A stretch of 40,829 bases of DNA, taken from positions 1 to 40,829 of the forward strand of contig CAZWYD010000002.1 in NCBI GenBank assembly GCA_964637815.1, read 5' to 3'. The translations under genes were made by a program, and so were the position numbers. Shown here piece after piece: positions 14,516-40,629 of this stretch. The DNA is from an uncultured Planctomycetia bacterium (GTDB taxonomy: Bacteria > Omnitrophota > Gorgyraeia > Gorgyraeales > Gorgyraeaceae). The notes beneath the pieces were generated by a model that made no database searches, had not been told where the DNA came from, and worked only from the letters and a program-made list of their open reading frames with translations. Numbering within the stretch: position 1 is the stretch's first letter; each line of letters begins with the position of its first letter.

Positions 14516-14544
14516 ATTATACCAAATATACAATGCTTTTGCAA
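14516..14544 (-). promoter_or_regulatory. Sigma70-like promoter upstream of the secreted repeat protein
   Basis: The minus strand reads TTGCAA-N17-TATAAT, about 35 nt upstream of the ATG at 14480. Confidence 0.45.
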
Positions 14545-14555
14545 GTAAAATCTTA

Positions 14556-15116
14556 TTAATCTTTTAGATGCACGTCTGCGTAAACTGCGAGCATTTCCTG
14601 GACTTTTTTAGGCGGTAAAATGACAAAGTAGTGGTCTACTATACAGTGTGCCATCTCGTGGGCGAGAAGACCTTCTCTTATGGCGCGTTCTGTTGTGTAA
14701 ATGGTGTTGGTCTTGTAAATATAAAAAGAATCTGCTGTATTTGGCTGGTGAAATATGTCTTCATATGCCTCGTTCAGACCATGTTTTGTCTTATAGATAT
14801 TAATGGCAACGTGTATCTTAGAAGGAAACATATCCAGTATATCTTCGACCTTCATGAATACAGCGTCGAGTTTGTCTGACAGGATCTCCTCCATTGAAAG
14901 ATCTGCCTTTTTCCTATAGCTACGAGCACTATAAAAATCAGAAAACCTGAGATTAATACGCCTGTTGACTATCTTCAAGTTCACATCCTTTTCATAGAAT
15001 ACAGTGCAGAATCTCGTCGAGAATATATTCCATTCCCTCTCTTGCGAATAAGCAAAATCCGCAACAGTAAGCACTAAACATGCAATAATTAAAATAACAC
15101 CTATTTTAACTTTCAT
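14556..15116 (-). CDS. Secreted small HExxH protein (putative zinc metallopeptidase-like)
   Basis: 186 aa. N-terminal signal/anchor. LLAHEMAHCIVDH contains HExxH. No other family-level motif recognised. Confidence 0.6.
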   Translation of the reverse strand: MKVKIGVILIIACLVLTVADFAYSQEREWNIFSTRFCTVFYEKDVNLKIVNRRINLRFSDFYSARSYRKKADLSMEEILSDKLDAVFMKVEDILDMFPSKIHVAINIYKTKHGLNEAYEDIFHQPNTADSFYIYKTNTIYTTERAIREGLLAHEMAHCIVDHYFVILPPKKVQEMLAVYADVHLKD

Positions 15117-17753: not shown

Positions 17754-20528
17754 CTAAATCCTTATGATCTCATAATATATGGCTTCTTGCTCTCCGGAGA
17801 AATTAAAATTATAAAAATTACGAGTGAGCCTTGCGGGGATTTTCTCTTTTCTACAACCTTCTTCATCCAAAGAGAATATTTTTAAATCTTTCTGCCTTCT
17901 TTTTTTCTTTATAAAAATCTCACCTTTTACTCCCTCTACCAAAATTGGAGCTTCTCCAGTATCCAGTATATACACGTCTCTACGAAGATCTTCTGGTTCT
18001 TTGGTTATATGTGGAGTAAGTTTCTCTCCTTTGTTCTTAACACGGCCGACCACTGCAAGCAAAAGTCGTTTTGAACTAGATATGTCTTTGCCGTCCAAAG
18101 AGGTTATCGTAACTGTAGTAAAATCCGATTCGATCGAAAACCTTATACCACTAAACTCCTCTTCTTCATTGCCTACGAATCCAGAAAAGGAAAACGTCCT
18201 TGGCGTTTTTAATGTAAAAATACCTTTTTTAGAATCTCTTGTAATCTGGCCCGTGTCAGATATGACCTTATCTCTATCTTTTACCACTTCCACAATATAA
18301 GGATAGTCCAAGCTTGATTCGTAAAGTTTCTTTTCCAGCTTCGATCGATACATGATACCAGCCAATTTATGTCGGTCAGGAATTAGATCAACCATATCAA
18401 AAAGACTATCTAAACTATAAGATGCATAATGTGTATTTGATGCGACCTTCACGTCCTGTCTTAAAAAGATCAACGCGCCCAAAGGGAATAGTCCCATTTT
18501 AGCAGGGTCATTAAATACCACTGTTGGATAATATATTTTTTTTTCCAAATTGTCCCATGATAGGCCCCATCCACCATTGTAGGAGTATAAAAATAACGCA
18601 TCCACGTCATTTAACGCCGCATATGCTGCTGTAGTCAGAACATCCACTGCCCGCCATTCATTAGGCCACATACTATCCCACTCTGTAAGTATAAGAGGTT
18701 TATTGTAAACCTTAGCCCTTGAGGCTATATTAACCAATGTCTCGGGATTCAGGTGGCTCTGTTTAATAAGTGGGCGGTTATGTATTATCTCTCTTTTATA
18801 TATATGATCCCAATATGGATGGATATCTGTAAAATCCATATTGCTATCAGCTGCGAGATCTAGATTATCGTGAGGCATGTTCGAAGCACCTATTGGACAT
18901 TTGACTCCTATTGAACGTAAATACCCGTACATCTCTTTTTGATATGTATCCTGCAGCTCAAACTTAAATTCCCTGTCGTCATACCATTTCTTATGTTCTG
19001 TCTTCAAATCGCCTTTTTTTTCTTTAAGCCAGGTCTTCCATAAATCATCTATCTCATCTTTATAGTATGCAGTAAATCGATCTACTATCCAATTTCCAAA
19101 AAGCGTATTTTCATTGCTCATCTCGACCATCGCAACTGCAGGCTCATTGAGATAGCTGCTTCCTGTATAAGGATTTATATGCGATAGAAAATCCAAGGCA
19201 AATTTTTTGCTGAGCTCTATAATCCTTTCATTAAAAAAAGAGATGCCGCCTGCACCAGACCTTATCTTGTTATAATCAACCACCCCGTCTCCTTCTTTAA
19301 ATCTCCTTGCCCCCAATCCCAGCACGTCGAATACAACATATATGCCATTTTCTTTTAATTTGTATATAAAATAGTCCAGTTTGTCCATCTGTGATTCTGA
19401 AAAATGTTGTGAATCATTGCCATTTGATTGTACTATCCCATGTGGCGCCTCATTATCAAGAAGATGCATCCTAACTGCATTACAGCCGAGCTGGGCGAGC
19501 CTCTTTGCAATACTCTCTGCCTGGGCATGGGTAGGAAAACATGCCTTACCAGAATGTATATTAACACCCCAAAATCTTGCACGTTTTCCATCTTCAAAAT
19601 AAAAATGCCCGTCTTTCATAGTTACAAAACCATGACTTCCAGCAGGCCTTTCCAATAAAAAACTAAAATCAATCTTTGATCCTTCACAATAACTCCATGG
19701 TACATAAAAAGGGAACTGATCTTTCTTCTCTTCTGTTTGAAAAAGATGTGAGGGTAAAAATGCAAGGCTCAGCAGAAAAAGAGCTGCTGTAACGCTTCTC
19801 CACTTTTTCTTAAACACTAGCCACATAAATAAGGTATTCCCGACTAAATAGCGCTTCCACATCCTCTTTGGCTCACTCAAAAACCTAAAAAACCACTCCA
19901 TCCCTATTTTCTGCATCCATCTTGGGGCCCTTTTTACTAATCCTGCAACCACATCAAAACTCCCGCCTACTCCCATGCAAACAGGCACATCCAGATACTT
20001 AAGATTATTCCTTATCCAGTACTCCTTCTCCGGTGTACCCATTGCAACAAACAAGATATCTGGCTTGAGCCTTTTTATCTCATTAATCACTGTCTTTTCC
20101 TCTGCTCTTGATTCAAAATACCCGCCATGCCAACCCACAATCTCTATCTTAGGAAATTTCTTCCTGTATATATCGACTAGCTTTTGCACTACCTCTTCTT
20201 TTGCCCCAAGAAAATACATACTGTATCCTTTAATAGAAGAGCGCTTGATGATCTCGCTCATAAGGTCTATACCAGCTACTCTTTCCTTTAACCTACAACC
20301 CAGAAATCTTGATGTGCCTACTATAGCCTGGCCATCAGCAAAGATAAGATCACTGGAATCAATGAGTTTAGCTAGTTTTCTATCTTGCTGCATCTTTACG
20401 ATCTTTGCAGCATTGACTGCTACGAGCTGGTGTGGCCGCTTAGAATCAACAAATCTATCCACTTGACTAAGGGCCTCCTGCATAGAAATGTTATCTATAT
20501 GAAAATCTAAAAATTTAACGCGTACCAT
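17754..20528 (-). CDS. Fusion protein: GT26 (WecG/TagA/CpsF) glycosyltransferase - TM segment - clan GH-A (GH5-like) TIM-barrel glycoside hydrolase - C-terminal beta-rich domain
   Basis: Residues 1-~245 carry WecG/TagA motifs (ADGQAIV, YFLGAKEEV, ILFVAMGTPEKEYW, GVGGSFD, EWFFRF). A hydrophobic segment VTAALFLLSLAFLP follows. Then RFWGVNIH...VRMH...EMSNENT (acid/base NE) ...LILTEWDS (nucleophile E). The ORF is uninterrupted, with GGAG 7 nt upstream of the ATG. Confidence 0.85.
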   Translation of the reverse strand: MVRVKFLDFHIDNISMQEALSQVDRFVDSKRPHQLVAVNAAKIVKMQQDRKLAKLIDSSDLIFADGQAIVGTSRFLGCRLKERVAGIDLMSEIIKRSSIKGYSMYFLGAKEEVVQKLVDIYRKKFPKIEIVGWHGGYFESRAEEKTVINEIKRLKPDILFVAMGTPEKEYWIRNNLKYLDVPVCMGVGGSFDVVAGLVKRAPRWMQKIGMEWFFRFLSEPKRMWKRYLVGNTLFMWLVFKKKWRSVTAALFLLSLAFLPSHLFQTEEKKDQFPFYVPWSYCEGSKIDFSFLLERPAGSHGFVTMKDGHFYFEDGKRARFWGVNIHSGKACFPTHAQAESIAKRLAQLGCNAVRMHLLDNEAPHGIVQSNGNDSQHFSESQMDKLDYFIYKLKENGIYVVFDVLGLGARRFKEGDGVVDYNKIRSGAGGISFFNERIIELSKKFALDFLSHINPYTGSSYLNEPAVAMVEMSNENTLFGNWIVDRFTAYYKDEIDDLWKTWLKEKKGDLKTEHKKWYDDREFKFELQDTYQKEMYGYLRSIGVKCPIGASNMPHDNLDLAADSNMDFTDIHPYWDHIYKREIIHNRPLIKQSHLNPETLVNIASRAKVYNKPLILTEWDSMWPNEWRAVDVLTTAAYAALNDVDALFLYSYNGGWGLSWDNLEKKIYYPTVVFNDPAKMGLFPLGALIFLRQDVKVASNTHYASYSLDSLFDMVDLIPDRHKLAGIMYRSKLEKKLYESSLDYPYIVEVVKDRDKVISDTGQITRDSKKGIFTLKTPRTFSFSGFVGNEEEEFSGIRFSIESDFTTVTITSLDGKDISSSKRLLLAVVGRVKNKGEKLTPHITKEPEDLRRDVYILDTGEAPILVEGVKGEIFIKKKRRQKDLKIFSLDEEGCRKEKIPARLTRNFYNFNFSGEQEAIYYEIIRI

Positions 20529-21630
20529 GTCTCTTCTCCAGCTCCTTGATTAGTATCTTTACAATCCTCTTTGCTGCCTTACCATCCCAGTACCTCGGTC
20601 TCTTACCTTTTTTAACCTTATCTGATATAATCCTGAGCCCCTCTTTAACTATTTTAGCCTTGTTCCTGCCCACAATAATATTCGTGCCTTTTTTAACTGT
20701 CACTGGTCGCTCTGTATTTTTACGAAGCGTGAGGCACTGTATACCCAGGGCAGTGGTCTCTTCCTGGATCCCCCCTGAATCTGTCAGTACAAACTTGGAA
20801 CCTGACATCAGCTTTAAAAAATCCAGATAACCCATTGCAGGCACCATTTTGAAATTGGTCATTCTTGATATATAACCATTAAATCTAAATCGCTTCAGCA
20901 TCTTTTTCGAACGGGGATGAACAGGCCACACGATCACAATCTCCTTCTGTATATCATTCAGGGCCTCAAAGATATCCATAAAGGCCTTTTTTTTATCAAC
21001 ATTGCTCGGCCTGTGTAGCGTCAGTACAGCATATTTCCCCTCTTTTAAGTTCAACCTCTTTAAGGCATCTCTCTTATGGGCTCTTTTCTTATTCTCCAGC
21101 AATGCATCGATCATTACATTGCCCACAAAATAGGTCTTAGTCTTGCCTTCTTTTAATAAATTAGTCTTGGCGCTTTTCTCTGTGATGAATAAGTAGTCTG
21201 CGATTGCATCGGTCAAGATCCGATTGATCTCCTCTGGCATATTTTTGTCAAAACTCCTCAGACCAGCTTCTACATGTGCAACCGGTATATGCATCTTTGT
21301 CGCGCATAAGCTACAGGCAATAGTAGAATTTACATCTCCCACGACCAATACTAAATCAGGCTTCACCTTTAGCAATATCTTCTCGAATCTCTCCATGATC
21401 TTTGCAGTCTGGACAGCATGTGAACCTGTGCCCACGCCTAAATAGAAATCTGGTTTAGGAAGGCCTAGATCCTTGAAAAATAATTTCGACATCCTGTAAC
21501 CAAAATGCTGGCCCGTATGCACTAATATAGGAACGATTTTATCCGGATAGCGTTCCATCTCTTTCATGATAGGGGCCATCTTAATGAAATTTGGCCTTGC
21601 ACCGACTACGTTAATTATCTTTAACTTCAT
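20515..21630 (-). CDS. wecB: UDP-N-acetylglucosamine 2-epimerase (non-hydrolysing)
   Basis: 371 aa. The VVGARPNFIKMAPI N-terminus, HTGQH, VVGDVNST, HVEAGLRS and TDSGGIQEE are canonical WecB/MnaA motifs. Confidence 0.92.
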   Translation of the reverse strand: MKLKIINVVGARPNFIKMAPIMKEMERYPDKIVPILVHTGQHFGYRMSKLFFKDLGLPKPDFYLGVGTGSHAVQTAKIMERFEKILLKVKPDLVLVVGDVNSTIACSLCATKMHIPVAHVEAGLRSFDKNMPEEINRILTDAIADYLFITEKSAKTNLLKEGKTKTYFVGNVMIDALLENKKRAHKRDALKRLNLKEGKYAVLTLHRPSNVDKKKAFMDIFEALNDIQKEIVIVWPVHPRSKKMLKRFRFNGYISRMTNFKMVPAMGYLDFLKLMSGSKFVLTDSGGIQEETTALGIQCLTLRKNTERPVTVKKGTNIIVGRNKAKIVKEGLRIISDKVKKGKRPRYWDGKAAKRIVKILIKELEKRHGTR

Positions 21631-23579
21631 CTCAAATCCCTCTCTAACTGACCAAGGTCAAGCCTTTTATTTGAAACATAGAGCATAGTGTCAAATTTTC
21701 CTCTGTCTCTTATAGTAGCTGTATTAACAAGTGTAAGACTCTTCCTCTTCACCCCAAATGCATCTGAGACCCAGCCAGCTATCGGAGAACTCTCGCCCTG
21801 TTTTATCTCTACAGAAAGAGCCCCATCTATCACCAAGTATAAAAATACCTTGCCGTTTTGAACCTCTATTACATTGGTCTCTAATCTTGCTACCTTAGAA
21901 CCATGGGCTAAGTGGAAATACTGCTCTACAGTATTAGTGCCTTTTGCATTTAAAAAATCCTCTATGAACCACGATTCTTTCTTTTTATCAAAAGATACTA
22001 TCCTTCTATGTTTCGCCTGAGGGTTGTTATATGAGGCATCGACATAGTCTCTATCCTTTGAACTCTCCCACTTATTTATCTTTGACACAGGTCTCTTGCC
22101 CCACATAAAAGGCCCTGTGATCTCTGACTGATTTACGCTATTTACTGTAAAGGTATTATGCGCGCTGGTACCCCTAAAATAATTTCTCCAGGAATCCTCA
22201 GAATGATAAAGATATGTGCCTGGATCTATAAGAAGTCTTACGCCATCTACAGAAAGCGTCACGCTTAGTAGATCTGCATGGCCATGAGCTGCTATGGAAA
22301 GATAACCCAGCTGGCCACAATCCATCATAAGGACTTTCTCGCTCCCATTAGATGAACCACCTCTAAATACAGCATAACCGCCTTCTTTAAAAAGCATGGA
22401 ATCCAATCGAAGCCTTGTCTCTTTAGTGGACTCGTACATATTGAAACCTCTCATCCCGAATAACCAATAGTGCTCTTCTCCAAATCCATTGCCTCTGGTT
22501 TTAAAATCCCCTCGCTTTGAAAATATGCTGGCGCTGGATAAAATAGATTTGAACACCTTGGATTCCTCAGAAAGCAACGCTGCCCTGGCATTATCCGAAT
22601 CCCCTACATTAGGCACTTCCCCAGCCTTGTCCATAACATTCATAATAAACTCGCACATATTAAAATACCTATCGAGGACGTCCTCTGGAATCTCTATATC
22701 ATTTTTTATGAGAAGTGTGGCTGTAAGCAAAAATGATTCCATAATAAAACCCTGATAGCCAAATGCCTGCTCTTTTGTAACCCCGTCTCGATACGTCTGT
22801 CGCATAATCTCTCTAAAAAGTATTTTTTTACCCTTATCCAGCCATTTCCTGGCATCTTTGAATTCCGGAAACGTAAGACCTGTTATTACCAAACCGCAGG
22901 CCTCTCCTATTAAATGATTATTCGCAGAGGAATATCCCGAAAGATTATTTCTTATAAATTCCGCCTGCATATATACTGATTTTAAAAAACATGCCTTGTC
23001 TTCTTGTGTAAAAATCCCTGATGGCTCTATAAATTTATATGTCCAGCACCACGAAATAAGTCTTAAACTCAGCTCAAGGGAACTTATCCAGTTAATCCCT
23101 GTATAAGGAGGGTTCTGGGTTATCCACGAAAGCATCTGATCCTTTACTTCCCTGGCATATTTCTTATTCCCTGTTAAAAAATACGCCTTGGCCAGAGTCA
23201 CAAAATGCTGATGCCTGTTAAATTCCCATACAAACCTAATATTCTCGAAAATACCTCCACGCCAATCGATATCCGAGCCCGCATCCCACTGCACATCAAA
23301 TACCTTAAAGTTATGACTGCACAATCTATCTGCCTGATTAGCTATCTTTACTATTCTTCGAGGAAAGAGTTTTGAAAATTCCTTTCTGATCCTTGGCTGT
23401 TGGGTTGCATCAAAATAAAAAAGCGTATGCGTATTTGTCCCTTTAAGGACCCTTCTTAAATCTATATCCCTTTTTACAGATCTTCTGAGCGTAGCCCTAA
23501 CAAATCTATTTGTCCTCAAGATCACTTCTTGAATAGACATGCAGGATAATCTTCTTAAAAACCAGATGGATTTATTCAT
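21627..23579 (-). CDS. Heparinase II/III-like protein (polysaccharide lyase/epimerase-like fold)
   Basis: NNHLIGEACGL and AAHGHADLLS motifs are typical of the heparinase II/III family. Start tentatively placed at the ATG at 23579 (GGGGA upstream); the ORF-track start is 23618. The stop overlaps the wecB start as ATGA. Confidence 0.8.
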   Translation of the reverse strand: MNKSIWFLRRLSCMSIQEVILRTNRFVRATLRRSVKRDIDLRRVLKGTNTHTLFYFDATQQPRIRKEFSKLFPRRIVKIANQADRLCSHNFKVFDVQWDAGSDIDWRGGIFENIRFVWEFNRHQHFVTLAKAYFLTGNKKYAREVKDQMLSWITQNPPYTGINWISSLELSLRLISWCWTYKFIEPSGIFTQEDKACFLKSVYMQAEFIRNNLSGYSSANNHLIGEACGLVITGLTFPEFKDARKWLDKGKKILFREIMRQTYRDGVTKEQAFGYQGFIMESFLLTATLLIKNDIEIPEDVLDRYFNMCEFIMNVMDKAGEVPNVGDSDNARAALLSEESKVFKSILSSASIFSKRGDFKTRGNGFGEEHYWLFGMRGFNMYESTKETRLRLDSMLFKEGGYAVFRGGSSNGSEKVLMMDCGQLGYLSIAAHGHADLLSVTLSVDGVRLLIDPGTYLYHSEDSWRNYFRGTSAHNTFTVNSVNQSEITGPFMWGKRPVSKINKWESSKDRDYVDASYNNPQAKHRRIVSFDKKKESWFIEDFLNAKGTNTVEQYFHLAHGSKVARLETNVIEVQNGKVFLYLVIDGALSVEIKQGESSPIAGWVSDAFGVKRKSLTLVNTATIRDRGKFDTMLYVSNKRLDLGQLERDLR

Positions 23580-25791
23580 TTTTACCATCCCCAGATAACA
23601 AGTCTCTATATACCTCAAAGAATTTATTGATTACACGATCTAATCTAAACATCGAATCAATCTTATTGATATTATTGACTCCCATTCCTTTCCTGAGTCT
23701 CTTATCTTTAAGAAGCTCTATAATCCGTTTTCCTAATTCCTGTTTTTGTCCTGGAGCTGTCAAGAAACCATTCTTTCCATCTTCTACTACCTCGGGTATC
23801 CCTCCAACCCTTGTTGAAACAACAGCTAATCCTGAAGCCATTGCTTCAAGTAGTGCAACAGGAAGGCCTTCATGATAGGAAGGTAACAAAAATACTGATG
23901 CATTCTCAAGCTCTTCTAACAATCTATCTTTGTAAAGCCAACCTAATAAAATTACATTCTTTTCAATCCCTTTTTGTAAACATAGTTTCTTTACATTTTC
24001 CAACTCACCATCACCTGCAAGGTAAAATTTAGCATTCGGGACTTCCTTCAAAACAAAAGGTACTATATCTAATATGTCATATGTGCCTTTACGCCATTCA
24101 AGGCGCCCCAATGTCAACACATTAAATCCATTGTGTTTTCTGTTGATGCTGATAGATTTAAAAATATCAGCATCAACAGAATTTGGTATTATTTTTATGT
24201 TTTGATTTCTGGTCATCTTGCTAACTTCTAAAAGCCATGTTTTTGATAAAACAACTATGATGTCAGAAAAATCCAATGCTTTCCTTATACAGAATCTTCT
24301 TATAGCATGAGAATAATTATAAAAGACGTCAAAACCCCCGGCCTCTATATGGAATATAGTTTTTTTCATAAAGAGTTTTGACAGTAACAAGACTGCTGCT
24401 TTTCTATAAAAACTACCTCTGGAGGCAGTAAAGATATGAACAATTTTTATATTTCTATCTAATGCTAGCATTGCAAGGAAAATAACTACGCTCTTCAGAA
24501 AGAAAAATGACTTCAATATTTTACTGCCATCAGTAGCCGTAGAGAGATAAGTTATATGAAATTTTTTGACTAATTCTGACTTGAGGCAATATTTCGCAAA
24601 TGAAGATATCCCTCCTTTAACATCCAGTCGCGGACCTACCATTATCACGCGTGTTCTTCTCTGATATTTTTCACCATTTGAAATGCAGTCCATGAAAAAT
24701 CTCTCCATTTTGCCCATCATCTGTTCCAAAGAAAACTTATCTTCTGCTATCTTTCTCGCCAACCTCCCCATAATCCTGCCCTTTTTCTCATTCTTAAGCA
24801 GCTCTATAATTTTTATGGCAAGCGCCTTAGGATTATCGGGCGGCACAAGAAAACCTGACTTTGTATCGACTATAATCTCAGAATTTCCGCCAACATTTGT
24901 TGCAACAATAGGCTTGGAAACTGCCGTGTATTCCAATAATGCAACAGGAAGAGATTCGTCTCTTGAGCAAAGAACAGCAATATCAAATAGAGAAATAAGA
25001 TCGGCTATATCTTTTCTTTCCCCTAAAAAAATTACGCTCTCCCCAATCCCCAAGTCAGTGACCAATTTTTCGAGAGATGCCCTTTCTTCACCATCACCAA
25101 TGATCAAGAATTTGGCGTTAGGGAAATCCACTAAAATATCTTTAGCTGATTTTAGCAGGACATCATGGCCTTTTTTTCTCACCAATCTCCCCACCATACC
25201 TATGATCTTGTCGCCTTCGGATATACCTATCTCTTGTTTGAGTCCATTTCGTTGTTCAAGATCCGTAAATTTCGCTATGTCTATTCCATTAGGAATCAAT
25301 ACTATCTTTTCAGGTTTTAAGTTATATTTTTTTACTAAAGATTTTAACTTTGCGTTTGACACAACTCCGATCTTATCCAATCTGTGCAAAATAAATCTGT
25401 TTATTATGTCTTTCTTAAACCTAACACGCCTATCTGGCTTCATAGTAGCATGGATAACTGTTGCAATACGTGGTACATTGAGAATCCTTGCACATATAAA
25501 TCCCCAGAATAAAACCAAGGGTGAATTTTCTGCAAACAATAGGTCTGGAGATTCTTTTTTAAGCAACTGAAATAATCTATAAGCCCCGTATAAATCGTAC
25601 TTACTCTTCATTAGGCCATGGTTCAACTCTATGCCTTCATTTATAAGCTCTTGGCCAATAGAACCTGGGCCATAAAGGCAGCACACTTTTAATCGGAACC
25701 TGGTCCTATCAAGATGCCTTACTATCTCATAAGCCATCTTCTCGGCTCCGCCAACATTTAAGGTTGGATGAAGAAAAAATATCTTTTTCAT
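23572..25791 (-). CDS. Two-module GT4 glycosyltransferase (two complete GT-B retaining-type modules in one polypeptide)
   Basis: Module 1 spans ~1-370 (LNVGGAEKM; ESLPVALLEY = EX7E). Module 2 spans ~385-740 (GGISSF; EGLPVALLEAMASG = EX7E). Start set to the ATG at 25791, 5 nt after the stop of the upstream small ORF; the ORF-track start at 25800 is a TTG. Confidence 0.85.
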   Translation of the reverse strand: MKKIFFLHPTLNVGGAEKMAYEIVRHLDRTRFRLKVCCLYGPGSIGQELINEGIELNHGLMKSKYDLYGAYRLFQLLKKESPDLLFAENSPLVLFWGFICARILNVPRIATVIHATMKPDRRVRFKKDIINRFILHRLDKIGVVSNAKLKSLVKKYNLKPEKIVLIPNGIDIAKFTDLEQRNGLKQEIGISEGDKIIGMVGRLVRKKGHDVLLKSAKDILVDFPNAKFLIIGDGEERASLEKLVTDLGIGESVIFLGERKDIADLISLFDIAVLCSRDESLPVALLEYTAVSKPIVATNVGGNSEIIVDTKSGFLVPPDNPKALAIKIIELLKNEKKGRIMGRLARKIAEDKFSLEQMMGKMERFFMDCISNGEKYQRRTRVIMVGPRLDVKGGISSFAKYCLKSELVKKFHITYLSTATDGSKILKSFFFLKSVVIFLAMLALDRNIKIVHIFTASRGSFYRKAAVLLLSKLFMKKTIFHIEAGGFDVFYNYSHAIRRFCIRKALDFSDIIVVLSKTWLLEVSKMTRNQNIKIIPNSVDADIFKSISINRKHNGFNVLTLGRLEWRKGTYDILDIVPFVLKEVPNAKFYLAGDGELENVKKLCLQKGIEKNVILLGWLYKDRLLEELENASVFLLPSYHEGLPVALLEAMASGLAVVSTRVGGIPEVVEDGKNGFLTAPGQKQELGKRIIELLKDKRLRKGMGVNNINKIDSMFRLDRVINKFFEVYRDLLSGDGKNE

Positions 25792-25796
25792 AAAAA

Positions 25797-26111
25797 TCAA
25801 TTTGTCGAACCTCTACTTGAGTAGAATATATCTGAAGTCGTTGGGAGATAGGCCCTGTCTTGAAGCTTGAATATTTTTACAAAAAGACTCTCATCGAATC
25901 TGATATCCAGGCCCATCTCTTGAACGCTGTCCCTTGAAAGAATAAACCTTATATTCTCTCCAGGTTTTACTAAAACTTCGTTCTTCTGGTCATTATTACC
26001 ATTGTTTATAATACGCGAGTATATTAGAGATTTCTTATCGTGACTCGCATTATTTATCTCTACATGAAGCAACCAAATCTCATCATTCCATTTATATCTG
26101 AACGTCTTCAT
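25797..26111 (-). CDS. Hypothetical 104-aa protein, no recognisable motif, translationally coupled on both sides
   Basis: The ATG at 26111 has GGGAGA ~6 nt upstream. It overlaps the radical-SAM 3' end by 20 nt and ends 5 nt before the GT4 ATG. Sequence looks beta-rich, with no signal peptide or TM segment. Confidence 0.55.
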   Translation of the reverse strand: MKTFRYKWNDEIWLLHVEINNASHDKKSLIYSRIINNGNNDQKNEVLVKPGENIRFILSRDSVQEMGLDIRFDESLFVKIFKLQDRAYLPTTSDIFYSSRGSTN

Positions 26112-27171
26112 ATATCTTCTCCCTATTCTTTAATGCCCTTATATCCGTACCACTCTTGCATATCCTACATATATAGCCTCTACAGTTAAGCTCTAAGTCA
26201 ATGACCCTGGCATTCAAACCTCTTCTTTCTACAAGGAGGCTGCCACAGTTAGCACAATACGTATTAGCGCCTTCATGCATAAACACATTACCTAAATAGC
26301 AATGTCTGATGCCCGCCTTAATAGCCAGATCTCTGGCTCTCTGAAGCGTCTCTACAGCTGGCCTTGGAACATCTGTATATTTATAGTTAGGGTGAAAGCG
26401 GACAAAATGAAGCGGGACATCCACTGAAAGATCCCTCTTAGCCCAGTTGATTAAATCCATGTAGTCCTTTTTATTATCATTCGCACCTGTTACTATAAGA
26501 TTACTTATCTCTATATGATGCCTCTTGGCATCAAAGATCATTTTTGTGCCCTTGATAACGGGATCAATCCATCCGCCTGTCAGCCGACGGTAAAATTCTG
26601 GATTTAGGCTCTTTATTGAAATACTGAAAATATCTATCACTTCCATGAATGCCTCAATGGCCTCAGGAGTCAGAAACAAGGCTGACTTAAAAAGGCTTAA
26701 AATACCATGTCTTCTGGCTAACCGAGCTGTATCCTGTATAAACTCTAACCAGATTGCAGGGTCATTATAGGTCCATGATATAATCTTTATACCCTTATCT
26801 AGTGCCATCTGTACAATCTGTTCTGGGGTATACTCATATATATCCTCTTCTTTAATATGCTCGAGCTGTGAGAATCTCCAGTTCTGGCAAAACTGGCACG
26901 AGAGATTGCACCCTACATTGCCAACAGACAATATCCTGCTGCCAGGCGCAAAGTGAAAGACTGCCTCAGTCTCTATCACTTCTTCTGCTACATGCACTGC
27001 CCTGCCATAGCTTATTGCGTAGAGCGTGCCTTTCTTGTTCATCCTGACCCCGCAGCGCCCTGTTGCCTCGTCTTCTATCACGCAGCGCCTGGGACAAAGA
27101 CTGCACTGGACCTTGCTATCTTTCAATTTCTTGTACAACCTCGCTTCATGATTCGCATTTAACTTTGTCAT
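26092..27171 (-). CDS. Radical SAM enzyme of the AmmeMemoRadiSam / PflA-activase-like branch
   Basis: VQCSLCPRRCVIEDEATGRCGVR (N-terminal Cys cluster), FHFAPGSRILSVG, GCNLSCQFCQNW (CX3CX2C followed by QNW), and a C-terminal Cys4 ribbon (CANCGS...CRICKSG). Start set to the ATG at 27171 (GGAGG 5 nt upstream). The ORF-track extension to 27306 reads through an inverted repeat and overlaps the upstream gene. Confidence 0.85.
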   Translation of the reverse strand: MTKLNANHEARLYKKLKDSKVQCSLCPRRCVIEDEATGRCGVRMNKKGTLYAISYGRAVHVAEEVIETEAVFHFAPGSRILSVGNVGCNLSCQFCQNWRFSQLEHIKEEDIYEYTPEQIVQMALDKGIKIISWTYNDPAIWLEFIQDTARLARRHGILSLFKSALFLTPEAIEAFMEVIDIFSISIKSLNPEFYRRLTGGWIDPVIKGTKMIFDAKRHHIEISNLIVTGANDNKKDYMDLINWAKRDLSVDVPLHFVRFHPNYKYTDVPRPAVETLQRARDLAIKAGIRHCYLGNVFMHEGANTYCANCGSLLVERRGLNARVIDLELNCRGYICRICKSGTDIRALKNREKIYEDVQI

Positions 27172-27180
27172 GACATCCTC

Positions 27181-27240
27181 CCTGTCCGACCTCGTAGGTC
27201 GGATTATTAGATTATTGTCCGACCTACGAGGTCGGACAGG
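27181..27240. repeat. 60-nt nested inverted repeat between the CapK-like gene and the radical SAM gene
   Basis: CCTGTCCGACCTCGTAGGTCGGA - 14-nt AT-rich spacer - TCCGACCTACGAGGTCGGACAGG gives 23-nt perfect arms. Each arm is itself a hairpin (TCCGACCT-CGT-AGGTCGGA). The 27218-27240 arm contains the CapK-like stop codon. On the mRNA, the 27181-27203 arm directly abuts the GGAGG RBS of the radical SAM gene. Confidence 0.85.
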
Positions 27241-28609
27241 TAACCTCGGATATAAACTGCTTAAATTTTCCTCCATCTGTCCTTGAGATACTTGCAACCT
27301 TTTCAACCTGTATATTTATATCGTCTCCGAGAAAATTCTTGATGCTCTTCCTGAGCCTTGATTCATCAGAATCAGAATATCTATCACCTGTCACAACCTT
27401 TACCCTTATCTTGCCTATATCCTCCTGTATGAGCTGCGTCTCTATAACATTGTTCAAATCTATAGAAAGCATCCCTGAAAGAAGTGAGATATGGCGACCA
27501 TCCTTTGTAATAAAAAAATTATCTGTCTTTCTGCCATCTATAGACTTTATCCTCTCAAAATTCCTGCCGCATAGACACTTTTCAGAGGACAGCGTAACGA
27601 TATCCCCTGTCTTATACCTTAAGAGAGGCATTGCAAAATTATTCAATGTCGTTCCTGCGATTTCAAAAGAACCTTCTCTTCCTTTTAAAGGCACTAATTC
27701 TGTAACTGCATCCTCCGGATATATATGGTAACTCCCTTTTTCGCACATACCTATACTAGAGACACGCTCTGCTGTTCCATAATGATCAATGACCCGTGTG
27801 CCAAACTCTTTTTCCATAAACTTTTTCTGGTGCGGCATGAGGACTTCTGAAGACGTAAACACATATTTAAAATCCAACTTCAGGCCCTTGCATCTTAATA
27901 ATTTTGCCATTAGATAACCTGCTGAAGGGACTGTCTCTAGGGCAACTGGTTTATATTTTTTAATCTCGTTAAAATAGTATGCTATATTTTCCTTCGAGAG
28001 GTGATATGCTGAAATAAATAGGCTTTTCTGGAAAAGATCCTTTCTCCAAAAAGGCGGCCTTTTTACATTTGACGGCACAATAGGGCTCGAACGTAAAATC
28101 ACCTTTCTATCGCCAAGATCAAACCCTGCCCAACTTTGCTCTCTTTTTATTATTGCGCGTTCAAAATTGATAGAATGGAGGTCTCGGTAAAGTTTTAAAG
28201 GCGAACCCGTTGTCCCACTTGTAAAGATCTTCCTTGTGAATAACTTCTTTATATTAACGGCTAAAAAATCCTCTGGGTTATTCTTAACATTCTGTTTGGA
28301 AATAAATGGGAGCTTTTTTAGATCATGGACGTTCTTGAAATCTGCAGGCGTCAGAGAGAGTTCCTTGAAAAGCCTCCTGTAATAAGGAACGTTCTCGTAT
28401 GAATGTTTTATAATCAGTTTAAGTTTTTCGCTCTGCAACTCTCGCAATTCTTCCCTTGAATAGTATTGGCTCTTTTCTAAAGAAGAAAGGGCCCCTTTAA
28501 AGGTCAGACCTTCTCTTAATAGCTTGAAAGCTAGGCCCTGCAAAGAAATAATGCATTCTTGCATATTAAGCGGGCTGTTTATATAAAATTGCGTCATAAA
28601 GATATTCAT
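27224..28609 (-). CDS. CapK / PaaK / coenzyme F390 synthetase-like adenylate-forming enzyme
   Basis: 461 aa. The FTSGTTGSPLKLY P-loop-like AMP-binding motif, YGTAE, and the overall length and architecture fit the phenylacetate-CoA ligase-like (CapK) family. RBS GAGGT. Confidence 0.85.
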   Translation of the reverse strand: MNIFMTQFYINSPLNMQECIISLQGLAFKLLREGLTFKGALSSLEKSQYYSREELRELQSEKLKLIIKHSYENVPYYRRLFKELSLTPADFKNVHDLKKLPFISKQNVKNNPEDFLAVNIKKLFTRKIFTSGTTGSPLKLYRDLHSINFERAIIKREQSWAGFDLGDRKVILRSSPIVPSNVKRPPFWRKDLFQKSLFISAYHLSKENIAYYFNEIKKYKPVALETVPSAGYLMAKLLRCKGLKLDFKYVFTSSEVLMPHQKKFMEKEFGTRVIDHYGTAERVSSIGMCEKGSYHIYPEDAVTELVPLKGREGSFEIAGTTLNNFAMPLLRYKTGDIVTLSSEKCLCGRNFERIKSIDGRKTDNFFITKDGRHISLLSGMLSIDLNNVIETQLIQEDIGKIRVKVVTGDRYSDSDESRLRKSIKNFLGDDINIQVEKVASISRTDGGKFKQFISEVTCPTS

Positions 28610-28621
28610 ATCACGACCTCG

Positions 28622-29443
28622 TTATTTCTTAAGAATCAAAATGCATTCGCCACAATATCTATTTAAAAATGGGAAAATTCCCAGTATGACATCGTCTAGC
28701 CTTTTTACGATCAGCAGAAACCATCGTACTAATGGAAGGTTTAAATGCTTTACAAAAACCCTCTTGATCATAAACAAAAAAGACATCATTTCAATTTTAT
28801 ATTCTGAGAAACCTCGAGCAAAACTCTCCATATCGCTCAGAGAAAGCTCTACGTCTCCTTTTGTTTTTATTTTCCGCGTAGTAAAAAACCTTCCAAGCTT
28901 AAAAAATATATTCCCTCTTAGAGTTTCTGCACAAATAACCATTCCGCCTTTTTTAACCACTCTGAGTACCTCCTCTTTTACATTCGGATACTTAGTTGCG
29001 TGGTGTAATACTTCATGAAAAATAACTATATCAAAAGAATCATTCGGATAGCTTATGGATGAAGCATTCTGTACAGAAAAATGACACATATCCTTAACCT
29101 TGTTTGCCCTTGCAAGCTTGTTAGCTACCGATATGCCAGCAGGTGAAATATCGAAACCATAGACTATCGCTCCTAATAAGGCAAAAAATACAGAATACTG
29201 TCCATTCCCACATCCAACATCTAATATGACTTTATCCTTTAATGTCTTTAAATTAACTATTTCAAAAACCCGCTTCGTTCTGTGTCCTCTGTCGCTCCGC
29301 CTTCCTGCTTTAAAACAGTAATCCTGCCACCATATTACATGCCTCGGATCTATCACATATGTCTTAAAATCAAACGGAAGGCTGTTTCTATAGTGAATAT
29401 CATGCTCTTTCCTCTCTATTTGCTCCCAATCATTAATAAACAA
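28622..29443 (-). CDS. Class I SAM-dependent methyltransferase
   Basis: ILDVGCGNGQYS (motif I) and DIVIFHEVLHH (motif II/III region). TTG start with GGAGG 7 nt upstream. Confidence 0.85.
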   Translation of the reverse strand: MFINDWEQIERKEHDIHYRNSLPFDFKTYVIDPRHVIWWQDYCFKAGRRSDRGHRTKRVFEIVNLKTLKDKVILDVGCGNGQYSVFFALLGAIVYGFDISPAGISVANKLARANKVKDMCHFSVQNASSISYPNDSFDIVIFHEVLHHATKYPNVKEEVLRVVKKGGMVICAETLRGNIFFKLGRFFTTRKIKTKGDVELSLSDMESFARGFSEYKIEMMSFLFMIKRVFVKHLNLPLVRWFLLIVKRLDDVILGIFPFLNRYCGECILILKK

Positions 29444-32350: not shown

Positions 32351-34818
32351 AGTGCCTTTAATTTAACGCTACTGATATAGAGATTCCTATCTTCCCCGGC
32401 CTCTACGTCGTAATAGTCGTTATCAAATATAATCTCAAACCTATTAATAGGATAATCTACGATTACAATCCCCGGATAAAAATCCCAGGATTCATTATCT
32501 ACATAAGCATCCATGGACTTTTTATCATTAAATCTCACTATCATATGAGGCCAGATATCTACTGCTTTCTTCCCTCTTGCCTTAATATTAAATTCATATA
32601 TTCCTGCTGGCAAAATCATGTCCAAGTTTAATCTCCCATCCTTGTGCATACCTTTTCTGATTTCAAATTTCACTTCAAAATTACTATCATCTAGATCAAA
32701 TGCCACAGATGCGCCATTAAATGCCAATATATTAGATGCATCCTCTGGCTTTTTCAGTAGCTTATACTTCACCTGATAGCCTTCTGGATTTTTAGAATCT
32801 AAGGTGATTGACCTTTCTGAAAATCTTTTAGCTGTTTCAGTAAATCCTTTCCTTAGATAATAATCAGATAATGCTGCAAATAATACTGATTTAGTCTTTC
32901 TCGAAGAAGTCATCTCTTTAAATTTATTAAAAGCCTCTGCTACAGAAAATATCTTCATGTAACACCGTAACTGCCCTAAATGAGCAGGTTCTTTAGATTC
33001 AAGAAACCCCTCTGCTATACTATAAAACACCAATGCCTTATTGTAATCTTTGGAAAGAAAAGCCAAGTTCCCTGCATCCAGATAGCTCTCGCCATCAGGA
33101 TGTTTGTCGTAACTGGACATTACATATGAGGCCTTTCTGTACATCTGGCTCGAAAGGTGCGAAGCTCCTGTATTTAACAAGAATTCTGCGGATTTCGTCA
33201 GGTAATAAGAATTCAAGGGGTCTAACTCAACTGCCCTATTATAAGCTGAAACTGCTGATTTAGAAATTCCTTGATCCTTGTAGACATCAGCCAATCCTAT
33301 CCATGACCATGCATCTATAGGATTTAGACGCAGGGCCTGTTTGAAACTTTTTTCGGACTCTTTCATATCGGCCTTTTTACGGTAAATACCGGCAAGCTTA
33401 TAAGGATAAAGATAATTCAATGGGCTTAATCTTGTAGCCAGAATACCCATATGCCTTGCCTTCTCTAGTTCATTTTTGTAGAGGGCCTTGGTAGATGCCG
33501 ATGAGCAGAGTTCTGCAAAGAAAAGACTTCCCATGAAAACGATCAATGCCGCTACAGTTACAAAAATCGCCGACTTCAAAAATCTATAGATAACCGGGCG
33601 CTGTCTTAAAATAATAGATTCATATCCTTTTTCTTTCTTCGAGGTCAGATTAAATATAAGAGCAGAAAATACTGTAAATATTATGACATTTGCCGGTATA
33701 TAAAAATTAAAATCTGCTATCGCATGAATCGATAGACTTAAAATGGCTGTTGATAAAGCAAGTGAAAGCCATTTCTTAAAGGACGTCCTTGCTATACTAT
33801 GTGTCCTAAAGCCCTTTCGAATTATCATAGCGACAATCAGGACCATTAGCATAAAACCAAAGATACCCATATCAGAAAAGACTTGCAGGTAATCATTATG
33901 AGCGAAATTTGCAAACCGATTTAACTCCGCAGGTCTATATTTTGGGAAATTATAGATAAAACTTCCCGGGCCTGTGCCAAGAAGCCAGTTATCCTTTATT
34001 ATGCCGACTGACCCTTTCCAAATTAACGATCGGCCTGATAGATCAAATTCAACGTAGCTGGATATCCTTTTGAACAATACGTCAATATGGGCGCTATTAA
34101 ATATAAAGACTGCCATGGTTACCAAAAGAAGTATAATTATGAAAAGACTGAATCTGGCCCTGCCTTTTCTAAATATGGCCGTGAACATGAAAATCATTGC
34201 GATTGTCAACGCAAACCATCCACCACGGGACAGGGAAAGTAAAAATGCTATAGACATAATTAAAAAAGAATATACGTACATTGTCTTTTTCCCTATCTCT
34301 TTTTCTGATAAAATCATGCCCACACATAGAGGCATACAAAGTTCCATTAGTCCTGCGAAATGGTTATGATTGACATATGTAGCAGAAAGAAATCTAGAGA
34401 CATCCCACCATGATCTATTTATTACTCCCAGATATTGAAGTATGCCGAACAGGGCAATACCTGTGCCTGTTATCAAAATTACATCTAGTAATTTTTTTAT
34501 ATCGCGTTCTTTGTTTATAAAATTTATTACTATATAAAATATGGCTGCCAGACTCAACAGTCTTACAAATTCCGCAAGCGTTGCATAAATATAGCTGGAA
34601 TTAAAAGATGCTACAACAAAGACAAAGAAAAAAGCTAGTATCGGTATATCCAGTGGAGTCCTCTTTATCTTTATATCCTTTTCTGAAAAGATCTTGAAGA
34701 TACAGAAAAGCCCGAGTGATAACGCCAGGATCTGTACAGGCGCAAAGGCCCATGCACGCGTTGCTCCTCTCGCTATAGGTGCAAATATCAGTATTGAGAT
34801 TAAGAAAAGTTGTATCAT
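32347..34818 (-). CDS. Wzy_C family membrane protein fused to TPR repeats and a C-terminal beta-sandwich (CBM-like) domain
   Basis: 823 aa. LSLSRGGWFALTIAMIF Wzy_C signature within ~12 TM helices. TPR units follow (SWIGLADVYKDQGISKSAVSAYNRAVELDP). The terminal ~140 aa are beta-rich and end in NDYYDVEAGEDRNLYISSVKL, which resembles carbohydrate-binding modules. Confidence 0.8.
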   Translation of the reverse strand: MIQLFLISILIFAPIARGATRAWAFAPVQILALSLGLFCIFKIFSEKDIKIKRTPLDIPILAFFFVFVVASFNSSYIYATLAEFVRLLSLAAIFYIVINFINKERDIKKLLDVILITGTGIALFGILQYLGVINRSWWDVSRFLSATYVNHNHFAGLMELCMPLCVGMILSEKEIGKKTMYVYSFLIMSIAFLLSLSRGGWFALTIAMIFMFTAIFRKGRARFSLFIIILLLVTMAVFIFNSAHIDVLFKRISSYVEFDLSGRSLIWKGSVGIIKDNWLLGTGPGSFIYNFPKYRPAELNRFANFAHNDYLQVFSDMGIFGFMLMVLIVAMIIRKGFRTHSIARTSFKKWLSLALSTAILSLSIHAIADFNFYIPANVIIFTVFSALIFNLTSKKEKGYESIILRQRPVIYRFLKSAIFVTVAALIVFMGSLFFAELCSSASTKALYKNELEKARHMGILATRLSPLNYLYPYKLAGIYRKKADMKESEKSFKQALRLNPIDAWSWIGLADVYKDQGISKSAVSAYNRAVELDPLNSYYLTKSAEFLLNTGASHLSSQMYRKASYVMSSYDKHPDGESYLDAGNLAFLSKDYNKALVFYSIAEGFLESKEPAHLGQLRCYMKIFSVAEAFNKFKEMTSSRKTKSVLFAALSDYYLRKGFTETAKRFSERSITLDSKNPEGYQVKYKLLKKPEDASNILAFNGASVAFDLDDSNFEVKFEIRKGMHKDGRLNLDMILPAGIYEFNIKARGKKAVDIWPHMIVRFNDKKSMDAYVDNESWDFYPGIVIVDYPINRFEIIFDNDYYDVEAGEDRNLYISSVKLKAL

Positions 34819-35585
34819 ATAATCTTAGTAAAAACCTCTACAATGTCCCCGTCAAATTGCGTGCCCCTGTGCTGTATAAGCTCAGCTATAGCCATATCCT
34901 TTGAAATAGACGTCTTGTAGGAATGCTCTGAAATCATTGAATCATACGCCTCTGCAATAGCTATAATGCGCGCGCCCACATGGATATCATTTCCTTTAAG
35001 GCCTTTTGGATAACCAGCGCCATCTATCCTCTCATGATGCTGGATCACAAGATCCTCAACACCATTCAATTCCTTTATCGAACTCAATGTCTGGTGGCCC
35101 AATACAGGATGTTTCTTTATCAATTCATATTCCCGGGAGCTCAATGGCCCTGATTTCAAAAGTATGCGCTTGTCTATGCCTATATGCCCTATATCATGAA
35201 CAAGGCCTGCTATTTTTGTGCGATTTAGCTCTGGATCATTTAAACCCAGCTTTTTTGCTGTCTGGGCGCATAGCTCCGAGACCTTTTGCACATGTAGGGC
35301 CAGGGATCTTCCTGCAGGGCCGATCGCATTAAATAAGGCCATGGTGATATTGGACAAGAATACGGCTGAAGAATGTCTGCTTGCTGCATCTTCAGGCTCT
35401 GCACTGCTGCAATCCATGGTGACCATAAGTTCCGTCTTGCTAATCCTGTGGTGGCCTCCTGGCGTTCTAAGTGTCCTGAGCTTGCCTGCATAGATGTAGT
35501 TCTTGATAGTAGACAGGCTCAGATTAAAATATTCTGCAGCCTGTTTTGGTGTAAAATAAATGTCTCCTTCGAATTGCTTTTTCAT
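34815..35585 (-). CDS. BldC/excisionase-type HTH fused to an HD-GYP domain (apparently catalytic)
   Basis: N-terminus: FTPKQAAEYFNLSLSTIKNYIYAGKLRTLRTPGGHHRISKTEL (HTH with a TPGGH.R motif). C-terminus: LALHVQKV, HDIGHIGI, KKHP, HHERIDGAGYPKGL and GARIIAIAEAYDSM, which together form a complete HD-GYP signature. GGAG RBS. The stop overlaps the Wzy-TPR start as ATGA. Confidence 0.85.
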   Translation of the reverse strand: MKKQFEGDIYFTPKQAAEYFNLSLSTIKNYIYAGKLRTLRTPGGHHRISKTELMVTMDCSSAEPEDAASRHSSAVFLSNITMALFNAIGPAGRSLALHVQKVSELCAQTAKKLGLNDPELNRTKIAGLVHDIGHIGIDKRILLKSGPLSSREYELIKKHPVLGHQTLSSIKELNGVEDLVIQHHERIDGAGYPKGLKGNDIHVGARIIAIAEAYDSMISEHSYKTSISKDMAIAELIQHRGTQFDGDIVEVFTKII

Positions 35586-39717: not shown

Positions 39718-40629
39718 TTATACTATCTCAAGGAACACGTTAACTAAGTCAGGATCAAACTGGGAACCTGAACTTTCCTTAATAATTGCTTTTGCCTCTT
39801 TCCCAGAATAGGCCTTTCTGTAAGACCTATTGGATATTAAAGCCTGATACACATCTCCTATTGCAATTATGCGTGCGCCTAAGGGAATATCTTCACCCTT
39901 AAGTCCATCTGGATAACCGCTCCCATTGAAGCTTTCATGGTGATGACGGACTAAAGGCTTTGTTTTTTCTAAAAATTTTATATCACTCACGATCCTCTCT
40001 GCAATCTTTGGATGCTCCTTTATTACCTTGAATTCCTGCTCTGTCAACTTTCCTGATTTTCTTAAGATCTGCTCGCTTACTCCGATCTTTCCAATATCGC
40101 GTAAAAACGCTGCGAGTTCCACAGTCCTTTTTTCCTCTGCAGATAAATTTAGACGCTCAGCTATTTTTAACGAACACTTTGCTGTAAAACCCAGATACGC
40201 ATCATCCCGTGTCTCTCTCATCTCTAATGCCTTTACCAATGCCCTGATAATTACAATGTAGGTCTCGTGAGGATCCTGGTGTATTTTATTGCCATTGGTC
40301 TTGATGAATTCATTTGTGCCATTTGTCAGCTCTTCCATAAATGCCTCTTCGAGCTGAGCAGGCAGATCTTGGCGAAGGATGCGGTGGTGACCGCCTGGGG
40401 TCTTAAAGGATTTTATTTTTCCTTGGTAGATGTAATTCTTAATGGTTTGAACGCCGACCTTCAATAATCTCGCAGCTTCCTTTGTTGTCAGGATGGGTTT
40501 TTTATATAGGCTAAGATTATTGTGATTTTCTTTGTCGTTTTTCACTATTAAGTAAAAAATTAAAATAACTGCATGCAAACCACTAACTCTATGTTTATTA
40601 TATATTTGACTAAACATTTTTGCAAGCAT
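39718..40629 (-). CDS. BldC/excisionase-type HTH fused to a degenerate HD-GYP domain (HD replaced by RD)
   Basis: LTTKEAARLLKVGVQTIKNYIYQGKIKSFKTPGGHHRILRQDL, then AAFLRDIGKIGV (RD where HD is expected), KEHP, HHESFNGSGYPDGL and GARIIAIGDVYQAL. The first ~40 codons (a hydrophobic stretch, no RBS seen) may not be translated, so the start is uncertain. Confidence 0.8.
   Translation of the reverse strand: MLAKMFSQIYNKHRVSGLHAVILIFYLIVKNDKENHNNLSLYKKPILTTKEAARLLKVGVQTIKNYIYQGKIKSFKTPGGHHRILRQDLPAQLEEAFMEELTNGTNEFIKTNGNKIHQDPHETYIVIIRALVKALEMRETRDDAYLGFTAKCSLKIAERLNLSAEEKRTVELAAFLRDIGKIGVSEQILRKSGKLTEQEFKVIKEHPKIAERIVSDIKFLEKTKPLVRHHHESFNGSGYPDGLKGEDIPLGARIIAIGDVYQALISNRSYRKAYSGKEAKAIIKESSGSQFDPDLVNVFLEIV

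Follow-up and report, generated by a model that had tools for sequence, protein, structure and literature searches.

The 40,829-nucleotide stretch analysed here (the window; contig CAZWYD010000002.1, from an uncultured bacterium) contains, according to Pfam scans, a minus-strand Wzx/Wzy-type exopolysaccharide locus, whose proteins have their nearest named relatives in Candidatus Omnitrophota. In the sense of transcription, the locus starts with genes for an outer-membrane barrel and for Wza, Wzc, and a regulator with an HD domain, continues with two Wzy-like proteins and Wzx, and then carries the four genes that are the subject of this work. These code for a methyltransferase, a CapK-like ligase, a radical S-adenosylmethionine (SAM) enzyme, and a protein of 104 amino acids (aa). 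They are followed by a double GT4 glycosyltransferase, a heparinase II/III-like protein, a UDP-GlcNAc 2-epimerase, a transferase of the WecG/TagA family that carries a long extension, and the initiating phosphoglycosyltransferase. A first-pass annotation, made from the sequence alone, had described the four open reading frames (ORFs) as a cassette within the glycan operon. All four are found on the minus strand where it had placed them (Table 1), and scans against Pfam and NCBIfam agree with its calls of a methyltransferase, a CapK/PaaK-like enzyme, and a radical SAM protein.

Table 1. Coordinates in the window of the four genes, of the intergenic hairpin, and of the downstream glycosyltransferase
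Feature	Position	Strand	Basis
Class I SAM-dependent methyltransferase, 273 aa	28622..29443	-	Pfam Methyltransf_31/11/25
CapK/PaaK-like adenylate-forming ligase, 461 aa	27224..28609	-	Adenylation motifs, PaaK structure match
Perfect 23-bp hairpin	27184..27237	-	Two inverted copies of a 21-mer
Predicted catalytic subunit, radical SAM protein like AmrS and pyruvate formate-lyase activating enzyme (PFL-AE), 359 aa	26092..27171	-	TIGR04337, Pfam Radical_SAM
Predicted β-sandwich partner subunit, 104 aa	25797..26111	-	Conserved family, AlphaFold 2 (AF2) sandwich, coding signature
Double GT4 glycosyltransferase	23572..25800	-	Pfam Glycos_transf_1 twice; translationally coupled, downstream of the small ORF

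The radical SAM enzyme and the 104-aa protein

The mechanical ORF of the radical SAM gene spans positions 26092-27306. Its likely start is the ATG at 27171, because this codon is preceded by GGGAGG and gives a protein of 359 aa, which is the length of all close orthologues. With this start, the overlap with the CapK-like gene that had been read from the mechanical ORF is replaced by a 52-nt spacer. The protein carries GCNLSCQFCQNW (CX3CX2C) and belongs to the radical SAM superfamily (PF04055, E 1.3e-21). The three cysteines of this motif (Cys88, Cys92, and Cys95) are kept in 29-30 of the 30 aligned sequences, and other conserved cysteines lie at the N-terminus (23, 26, 30, and 40) and at the C-terminus (306, 309, 335, and 338). 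Against TIGR04337, the model of the AmmeMemoRadiSam radical SAM enzyme, the protein scores 291.3 bits (cutoff 220), the next model being PflA with 51 bits.

The closest solved fold is that of PFL-AE (PDB 3cb8 and 8fo0; Foldseek E 3e-12, target-normalised TM 0.74-0.79), which is also the only sequence-level match in PDB. Both are partial-TIM-barrel radical SAM proteins, but they share only ~16% identity, and the N-terminal Cys cluster, the Zn-ribbon, and the β-sandwich partner described in the following are missing from PFL-AE. BlsE, DesII, NeoN, and AprD4 are radical SAM enzymes that modify sugars, BlsE acting on a uronic acid. BlsE ranks 42nd in the list of Foldseek matches. These enzymes differ from the one in the window in belonging to other radical SAM clades with no specific sequence relationship to it, in having nucleotide- or aglycone-linked small molecules as substrates, and in having no β-sandwich partner. 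The possibility raised in the first-pass annotation that the enzyme might group with a characterised sugar-modifying clade can be set aside, as it falls in none. Its suggestion of C-methylation finds no support either, since the protein has no B12 (cobalamin) or HemN-type domain.

The 104-aa protein matches nothing in Pfam or NCBIfam. Its ORF has its own GGGAGAAG ribosome-binding site and overlaps the radical SAM gene by 20 nt, just as first annotated. Whether it has homologues and a coding signature had been left open; it has both. Orthologues (38-100% identity) each lie directly after an orthologous radical SAM gene, usually with the same 20-nt overlap. Among ten aligned orthologues, W8, E18, N21, Y31, G51-E52, R55, S59, and E65 are invariant, together with the block F-x-L-x-D-R-A-Y-L-P-x-x-x-D (which contains D85-R86-A87). 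Differences at third codon positions exceed those at first and at second positions in all 21 pairs compared. For example, the related loci L001 and L002 differ at 13, 9, and 29 sites for codon positions 1, 2, and 3, with 22 synonymous versus 17 non-synonymous codon changes.

An exhaustive profile search for the small protein, covering 1.84 billion representative proteins, yields 61 clusters (at 50% identity). Most contain free-standing proteins of 95-100 aa, and in three the domain is fused to the C-terminus of a radical SAM protein. For example, P0156 (453 aa) consists of a complete AmrS-like radical SAM protein (302 bits) followed by the β-sandwich domain. A second profile, made from 25 family members and searched against all the proteins collected in this analysis, matches approximately residues 365-460 in ~90 proteins of 450-510 aa. 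These fused proteins are among the best matches of the window radical SAM outside Omnitrophota (~50% identity, against 57-99% for the orthologues within Omnitrophota). Their sources include Micromonospora, Actinoplanes, Streptomyces, Chloroflexi, Planctomycetes, and Thermoanaerobaculia, and where the source gives a protein name, it is mostly 'AmmeMemoRadiSam system radical SAM enzyme'. Other relatives are split: shorter radical SAM proteins followed by a separate ORF of ~97 aa are found in Bacillus sp. FJAT-27264, a Clostridia metagenome-assembled genome (MAG), and metagenome contigs. Wherever a metagenome locus could be resolved, the small ORF lies directly after a radical SAM gene (46-53% identity). 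Fused and split forms thus alternate within one subfamily, as the long relatives carry the domain and the shorter ones have the ~97-aa ORF. Throughout the wider β-sandwich family, a W, an R, and D-R-A are invariant, the last being followed by Y/H, Y/L/F, and usually P.

The AF2 model of the 104-aa protein is an eight-strand β-sandwich (pLDDT 81.7). A fused homologue is modelled with pLDDT 88.5 and pTM 0.89, which is consistent with a compact two-domain enzyme. The best Foldseek matches of the small protein in PDB are generic sandwiches (CBM22 and TM1070, best E 0.016), its profile matches no PDB sequence, and the domain is not covered by Pfam. A function based on fold was therefore rejected. 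A role as glycyl-radical substrate was also rejected, because the glycine of the C-terminal SRGS is not conserved. In a further difference from PFL-AE, the pair shows no sign of being a glycyl-radical/activase pair: the small-protein family has neither an RVxG[FWY] motif nor an invariant Gly, and no glycyl-radical enzyme gene is present in the window.

In conclusion, the 104-aa protein is not the motif-less orphan for which it was taken, but the detached C-terminal domain of its radical SAM subfamily, split here and fused to the enzyme in most relatives. Because in relatives this domain is either fused to the radical SAM protein or encoded directly after it, the two proteins almost certainly form one two-component enzyme.

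Relation to the AmmeMemoRadiSam family

The first-pass annotation had assigned the radical SAM protein to the AmmeMemoRadiSam branch on its cysteines, while noting that the window has neither AMMECR1 nor Memo. This absence is confirmed: no AMMECR1 or Memo domain is found among the 29 window ORFs scanned against Pfam (most of those with at least 150 aa). The same holds for the relatives, as no AMMECR1 or Memo gene lies within 6-10 kb of any relative's locus examined. The cysteine hallmarks (N-terminal Cys cluster, CX3CX2C, and C-terminal Cys4 ribbon) are all present, but they are family-wide traits common to AmrS and to the clade with the β-sandwich partner. Likewise, the protein passes TIGR04337, but this score fails to separate the partnered subfamily (287-306 bits) from the AmrS of Ideonella, Segatella, and Trichlorobacter (305-625 bits).

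The amrB-adjacent AmrS of Ideonella and Segatella plasmids and the lone Trichlorobacter amrS have 34-37% identity with the window enzyme. In a neighbour-joining tree with these three sequences as outgroup and no bootstrap, the Omnitrophota clade does not group with AmrS; it nests within the partnered subfamily, which a long branch separates from the three AmrS. The window enzyme thus differs from AmrS in belonging to a separate clade, defined by the partner domain, and in being embedded in a polysaccharide operon. A search among plasmids found only canonical AmrS and no partnered form. Judging by sequence, the partnered subfamily appears to be separate from canonical AmrS and, as far as seen, has no AMMECR1/Memo system. 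The AmmeMemoRadiSam assignment therefore holds for the family model and fails for the subfamily, which is distinct from amrB-linked AmrS. We know of no established chemistry for canonical AmrS, whose family is, to our knowledge, related to the human AMMECR1/MEMO1 partner systems. In the Journal of Biological Chemistry in 2019, Burroughs and colleagues reportedly tied Memo-AMMECR1-radical SAM contexts to the modification of nucleotide bases and isoprenoids.

The CapK-like ligase and the genomic contexts

Genes for the CapK-like protein, the radical SAM enzyme, and the small protein are found as a group in at least eight polysaccharide loci of Omnitrophota, in the order CapK-radical SAM-small ORF or radical SAM-small ORF-CapK. 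The recurrence of this trio, proposed as a check in the first-pass annotation, is observed in the window, L001, L002/L013, L003/L004/L011, L005, L006/L014, L012, and L015. A scan of genome contigs with a closer alignment of the small protein found only four Omnitrophota loci. In addition to the loci named, contigs of equal length in the hit lists of CapK, radical SAM, and small ORF suggest about six cases in which the three are co-located.

In L001 (Candidatus Gorgyraea atricola), the trio (CapK first) is preceded by two Wzy, Wzx, a GT4, a FemAB-like protein, and a deacetylase, and is followed by a fusion of the double GT4 with a heparinase-like domain and by a UDP-sugar dehydrogenase. The arrangement is the same in L002/L013, except that the heparinase-like protein is separate. 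In L003/L004/L011, CapK, radical SAM, and small ORF are followed by the double GT4, a second CapK, a heparinase-like protein, and an epimerase. The order is WecG-like, CapK, radical SAM, and small ORF in L005; CapK, radical SAM, and small ORF in L012; and deacetylase, two GT4, CapK, radical SAM, and small ORF in L015. The pair comes first in L006/L014 (radical SAM, small ORF, CapK, GT4, WecG fusion, and phosphoglycosyltransferase). The truncated L007, with the same radical SAM as L006, shows a heparinase-like protein, a dehydrogenase, radical SAM, and small ORF. Loci with the trio also encode UDP-GlcNAc 2-epimerase, WecG/TagA-family transferase, and heparinase II/III-like proteins, and often a UDP-sugar dehydrogenase. 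The double GT4 is a conserved downstream neighbour of the small ORF in four related loci. Its orthologues are full-length in L002 and L003 (54-58% identity), and its heparinase fusion in L001 starts directly after the small ORF.

The methyltransferase is a class I SAM methyltransferase (Methyltransf_31/11/25, E 1e-18 to 1e-22) that stays below all NCBIfam equivalog cutoffs. Because none of the related loci L001-L015 has an orthologue of it, it was rejected as a member of the cassette. Of the four-gene cassette proposed initially, the trio recurs and the methyltransferase is absent from every related locus. This gene is thus a co-transcribed but variable accessory, outside the conserved module, and might make an independent, strain-variable decoration. 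The conserved unit is a trio and not a quartet, and within it the radical SAM/small-protein pair is the tighter unit. The module consists of a CapK-like ligase plus this pair, because the trio is syntenic, the methyltransferase has no orthologues, and in the related Omnitrophota locus L016 a CapK paralogue (43% identity) adjoins a GT4 and no radical SAM.

The CapK-like protein carries the adenylation motifs TSGTTGSP, YGTAE, YKTGD, and GGKFK. Its matches to the PaaK, DVU_1553, and F390-synthetase models are partial (113-129 bits, cutoffs 300-700), and it is not a PaaK equivalog (113-121 bits for cutoffs of 646-700). Together with CapK_C (PF27533), found by Pfam on the identical protein P0186 and on orthologues, the motifs place it among the ANL/PaaK-type (CapK-like) enzymes. 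Orthologues that adjoin the radical SAM gene have 51-79% identity with it. Its closest solved structure is PaaK 4r1l (E 1.6e-24). It shares the adenylation motifs with PaaK (PDB 4r1l and 2y4o), whereas its context is glycan synthesis and not aromatic catabolism, and some homologues are fused to GT4 (the CapK_C-GT4 proteins P0265 and P0274). FemAB-like and polysaccharide deacetylase genes adjoin the trio in L001 and L002.

Genetic data show that the PaaK/CapK-like VpsH of Vibrio cholerae is needed for glycine to be attached to the hexosaminuronic acid of the undecaprenyl-diphosphate-linked disaccharide of vibrio polysaccharide (VPS), whose locus also employs a UDP-GlcNAc 2-epimerase, a dehydrogenase, and a WecG-like module (PMC13463779). 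VpsH and the Omnitrophota ligases are thus PaaK/CapK-like proteins in Wzx/Wzy loci with a UDP-GlcNAc 2-epimerase and a WecG-like module, a likeness of family and locus type for which VpsH was compared by description only. By contrast, the description of the vps cluster mentions neither a radical SAM nor a small partner protein (PMC13463779). Given the genetics of VpsH, the common module, the CapK_C-GT4 fusions, and the FemAB-like and deacetylase neighbours, the CapK-like enzyme is inferred to make an amide-linked decoration. L003 also has a second CapK-like gene (a paralogue, 41% identity) together with an ATP-grasp-like one (4710-6056 and 10208-11470), which suggests several independent amide decorations on one glycan.

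The spacer that separates the stop of the CapK-like gene from the start of the radical SAM gene contains the perfect hairpin of Table 1, each arm of which is itself palindromic and whose 3′ arm abuts or overlaps the GGGAGG ribosome-binding site of the radical SAM gene. The RNA fold has -52.2 kcal/mol (z = -9.3), and no shuffled sequence gave a 21-mer match. Its only match in Rfam is miRNA-like, spurious, and below the gathering score. At this junction, the spacer is absent from L001 and L002. The hairpin may act on translation or on mRNA stability, or it may be a small repeat that was inserted.

Outside Omnitrophota, no universal partner family is found, while some families recur. In a Micromonospora genome (L008 8001-12278) and a Chloroflexi MAG (L009 8001-13719), two further radical SAM genes lie after that of the fused form, one for a protein of 501 aa and one for a HemN-like protein. 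The 501-aa protein of this three-radical-SAM cluster is conserved in both, and L009 has in addition a flavoprotein and a fusion of a methyltransferase with CdhD. Among the ORFs upstream of the fused genes in L008 and L009, there is no convincing conserved peptide that could be the precursor of a ribosomally synthesized and post-translationally modified peptide. Nonribosomal peptide synthetase (NRPS) genes adjoin split forms in L017 and L018. Cys/Met-metabolism pyridoxal phosphate (PLP) enzymes lie beside relatives in L010, L026, and L031, and aminotransferases in L017 and L031. Proteins with CdhD and Fer4 domains are found beside split forms in L010 and L022, metallo-β-lactamases in L010, L018, and L022, and other radical SAM proteins and MFS transporters also adjoin split forms. 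The CdhD-like proteins of L010 (5828-6961) and L022 (168-1301) are fusions with two [4Fe-4S] ferredoxin domains in a layout like that of fused HgcA/HgcB; in L010, a UbiE-type methyltransferase lies near the fusion. Overall, the radical SAM pair looks like a portable tailoring module, mostly near amino-acid or secondary-metabolite chemistry.

Some other features of the window deserve mention. The heparinase II/III-like protein is kept in the window (21627-23618), L001 (11381-15556), and L015 (12900-15681), and in the latter two it is fused to the double GT4. This fusion argues for cytoplasmic action on a lipid-linked glycan rather than for a secreted lyase; its chemistry could be, for example, uronate C5-epimerase-like. 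In the WecG/TagA-family transferase (17754-20528), the domain covers only about residues 1-245 of 924 aa. The C-terminal extension (~680 aa) has no family match and shows 58-61% identity in L001, L002, L006, and L014. At 12140-15116, between a histidine kinase and HAMP/SurA-like genes, lies a block with a second, unrelated radical SAM protein (290 aa; weak MoaA/mycofactocin-maturase-like matches), a 478-aa protein (weak baseplate-assembly-like match), and a 186-aa protein with no match; L016 has a similar block of unknown genes. Two paralogous HTH_17 + HD_5 (HD-GYP-like) proteins (34815-35585 and 39718-40629) flank the export genes (Wzc, Wza, and β-barrel), and they may couple the locus to cyclic-nucleotide signalling.

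Possible function of the module

On balance, we favour the interpretation that the ligase adds an amide-linked substituent and that the two-component radical SAM enzyme makes or modifies that substituent. The CapK-like enzyme would use ATP to adenylate a carboxylate and form an amide on the lipid-linked repeat unit. By analogy with VpsH, this amide would most likely join a hexosaminuronic acid to an amine or amino acid; the opposite arrangement, in which the amine belongs to the sugar and an acid is attached to it, is also possible. Before or after ligation, the radical SAM enzyme would cleave SAM and abstract a hydrogen from that substituent, thereby creating or altering an amino-acid-like decoration. 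The glycine that PFL-AE attacks, by abstracting the hydrogen at Cα, is a backbone residue; its N-acyl-amino-acid group is also found in an amino acid bound to a uronic acid through an amide, so that attack at Cα is the most economical guess, with epimerisation, desaturation, or oxidative cleavage as the outcome. The β-sandwich would act as a substrate-binding or active-site-closing subunit. More tentatively, the pair may represent an undescribed class of two-component radical SAM enzymes, mislabelled as AmmeMemoRadiSam, that abstracts hydrogen from groups of the N-acyl-amino-acid type, the target in Omnitrophota being a CapK-amidated amino acid on the lipid-bound glycan.

Several observations weigh against this interpretation. 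Outside Omnitrophota, the radical SAM pair occurs without a CapK-like gene and in varied contexts, and hence the link to CapK may be lineage-specific. Conversely, CapK paralogues work without a radical SAM (in L016, and the second CapK of L003). The window has no UDP-sugar dehydrogenase, and therefore a uronic acid acceptor is not assured here. The docking of the radical SAM and small proteins is deduced from the fusions and one pTM value. A literature search found no paper on AmmeMemoRadiSam or AmrS function, and the reaction proposed above is a guess.

The main alternative, which we regard as rather unlikely, is a variant that differs in the order of the steps. The radical SAM pair would convert a free amino acid or small acid into a non-standard one, which the CapK-like ligase (elsewhere an NRPS adenylation domain) would then activate and install; the radical step itself would thus precede ligation and leave the glycan untouched. 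Such a supply of building blocks is somewhat favoured by the relatives near NRPS genes, aminotransferases, and Cys/Met-metabolism PLP enzymes, and by the many pairs that are self-contained two-gene units with no macromolecular partner. However, PFL-AE-like enzymes typically act on polymer-bound groups, the neighbour families are inconsistent across loci, and the Omnitrophota pair is translationally coupled to glycosyltransferases and not to genes of precursor synthesis. A substrate of yet another kind, the polyprenyl carrier lipid, is possible, but no result of this analysis points there.

The first-pass annotation had also considered that the radical SAM might act on the 104-aa protein. A radical or other post-translational modification would be installed, for example in the D-R-A-Y loop, on a protein that then acts in glycan synthesis. 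PFL-AE, the closest solved fold, is indeed a protein-modifying activase, and the invariant DRAY(Y/L)P lies in the loop after strand 7 of the model. Yet the small protein has no conserved Gly or Cys (the one Gly near its C-terminus varies), most relatives carry the domain as a fusion with the enzyme, the two are modelled as a compact unit, and no catalytic fold is evident in a protein of ~100 aa, all of which makes this reading improbable. Slightly more improbable still is that the enzyme is a canonical AmmeMemoRadiSam member, working with AmrA (AMMECR1) and AmrB (Memo) encoded elsewhere and present in the glycan locus by accident. The TIGR04337 score and the cysteine features shared with AmrS would fit; what contradicts it is a gene order with CapK and glycosyltransferases that is conserved, at identities as low as 57%, in at least eight loci, the low identity with amrB-adjacent AmrS, the nesting of the clade within the partner-domain subfamily, and the lack of AMMECR1 and Memo within 6-10 kb in the relatives' loci examined.

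Radical SAM tailoring in biosynthetic clusters is already known, and the ligase has a recently characterised analogue in VpsH. If the more tentative reading of an undescribed enzyme class is true, no PFL-AE-like radical SAM enzyme would have been known before to modify a polysaccharide, and NRPS clusters and natural-product clusters with multiple radical SAM enzymes would reuse this module. The most useful results are the unannotated partner domain, which can become a family model, and the mislabelled subfamily, a large and phylogenetically broad set of proteins that is separated from the AmmeMemoRadiSam label. A glycan operon with an adjacent amide ligase provides a tractable genetic context for the function of AmrS-like radical SAM enzymes, as the product of the ligase should be readable by mass spectrometry or nuclear magnetic resonance. 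Omnitrophota are uncultured, ultra-small, and often host-associated bacteria, and the locus suggests that they include makers of an unusual surface polysaccharide decorated with amino acids.

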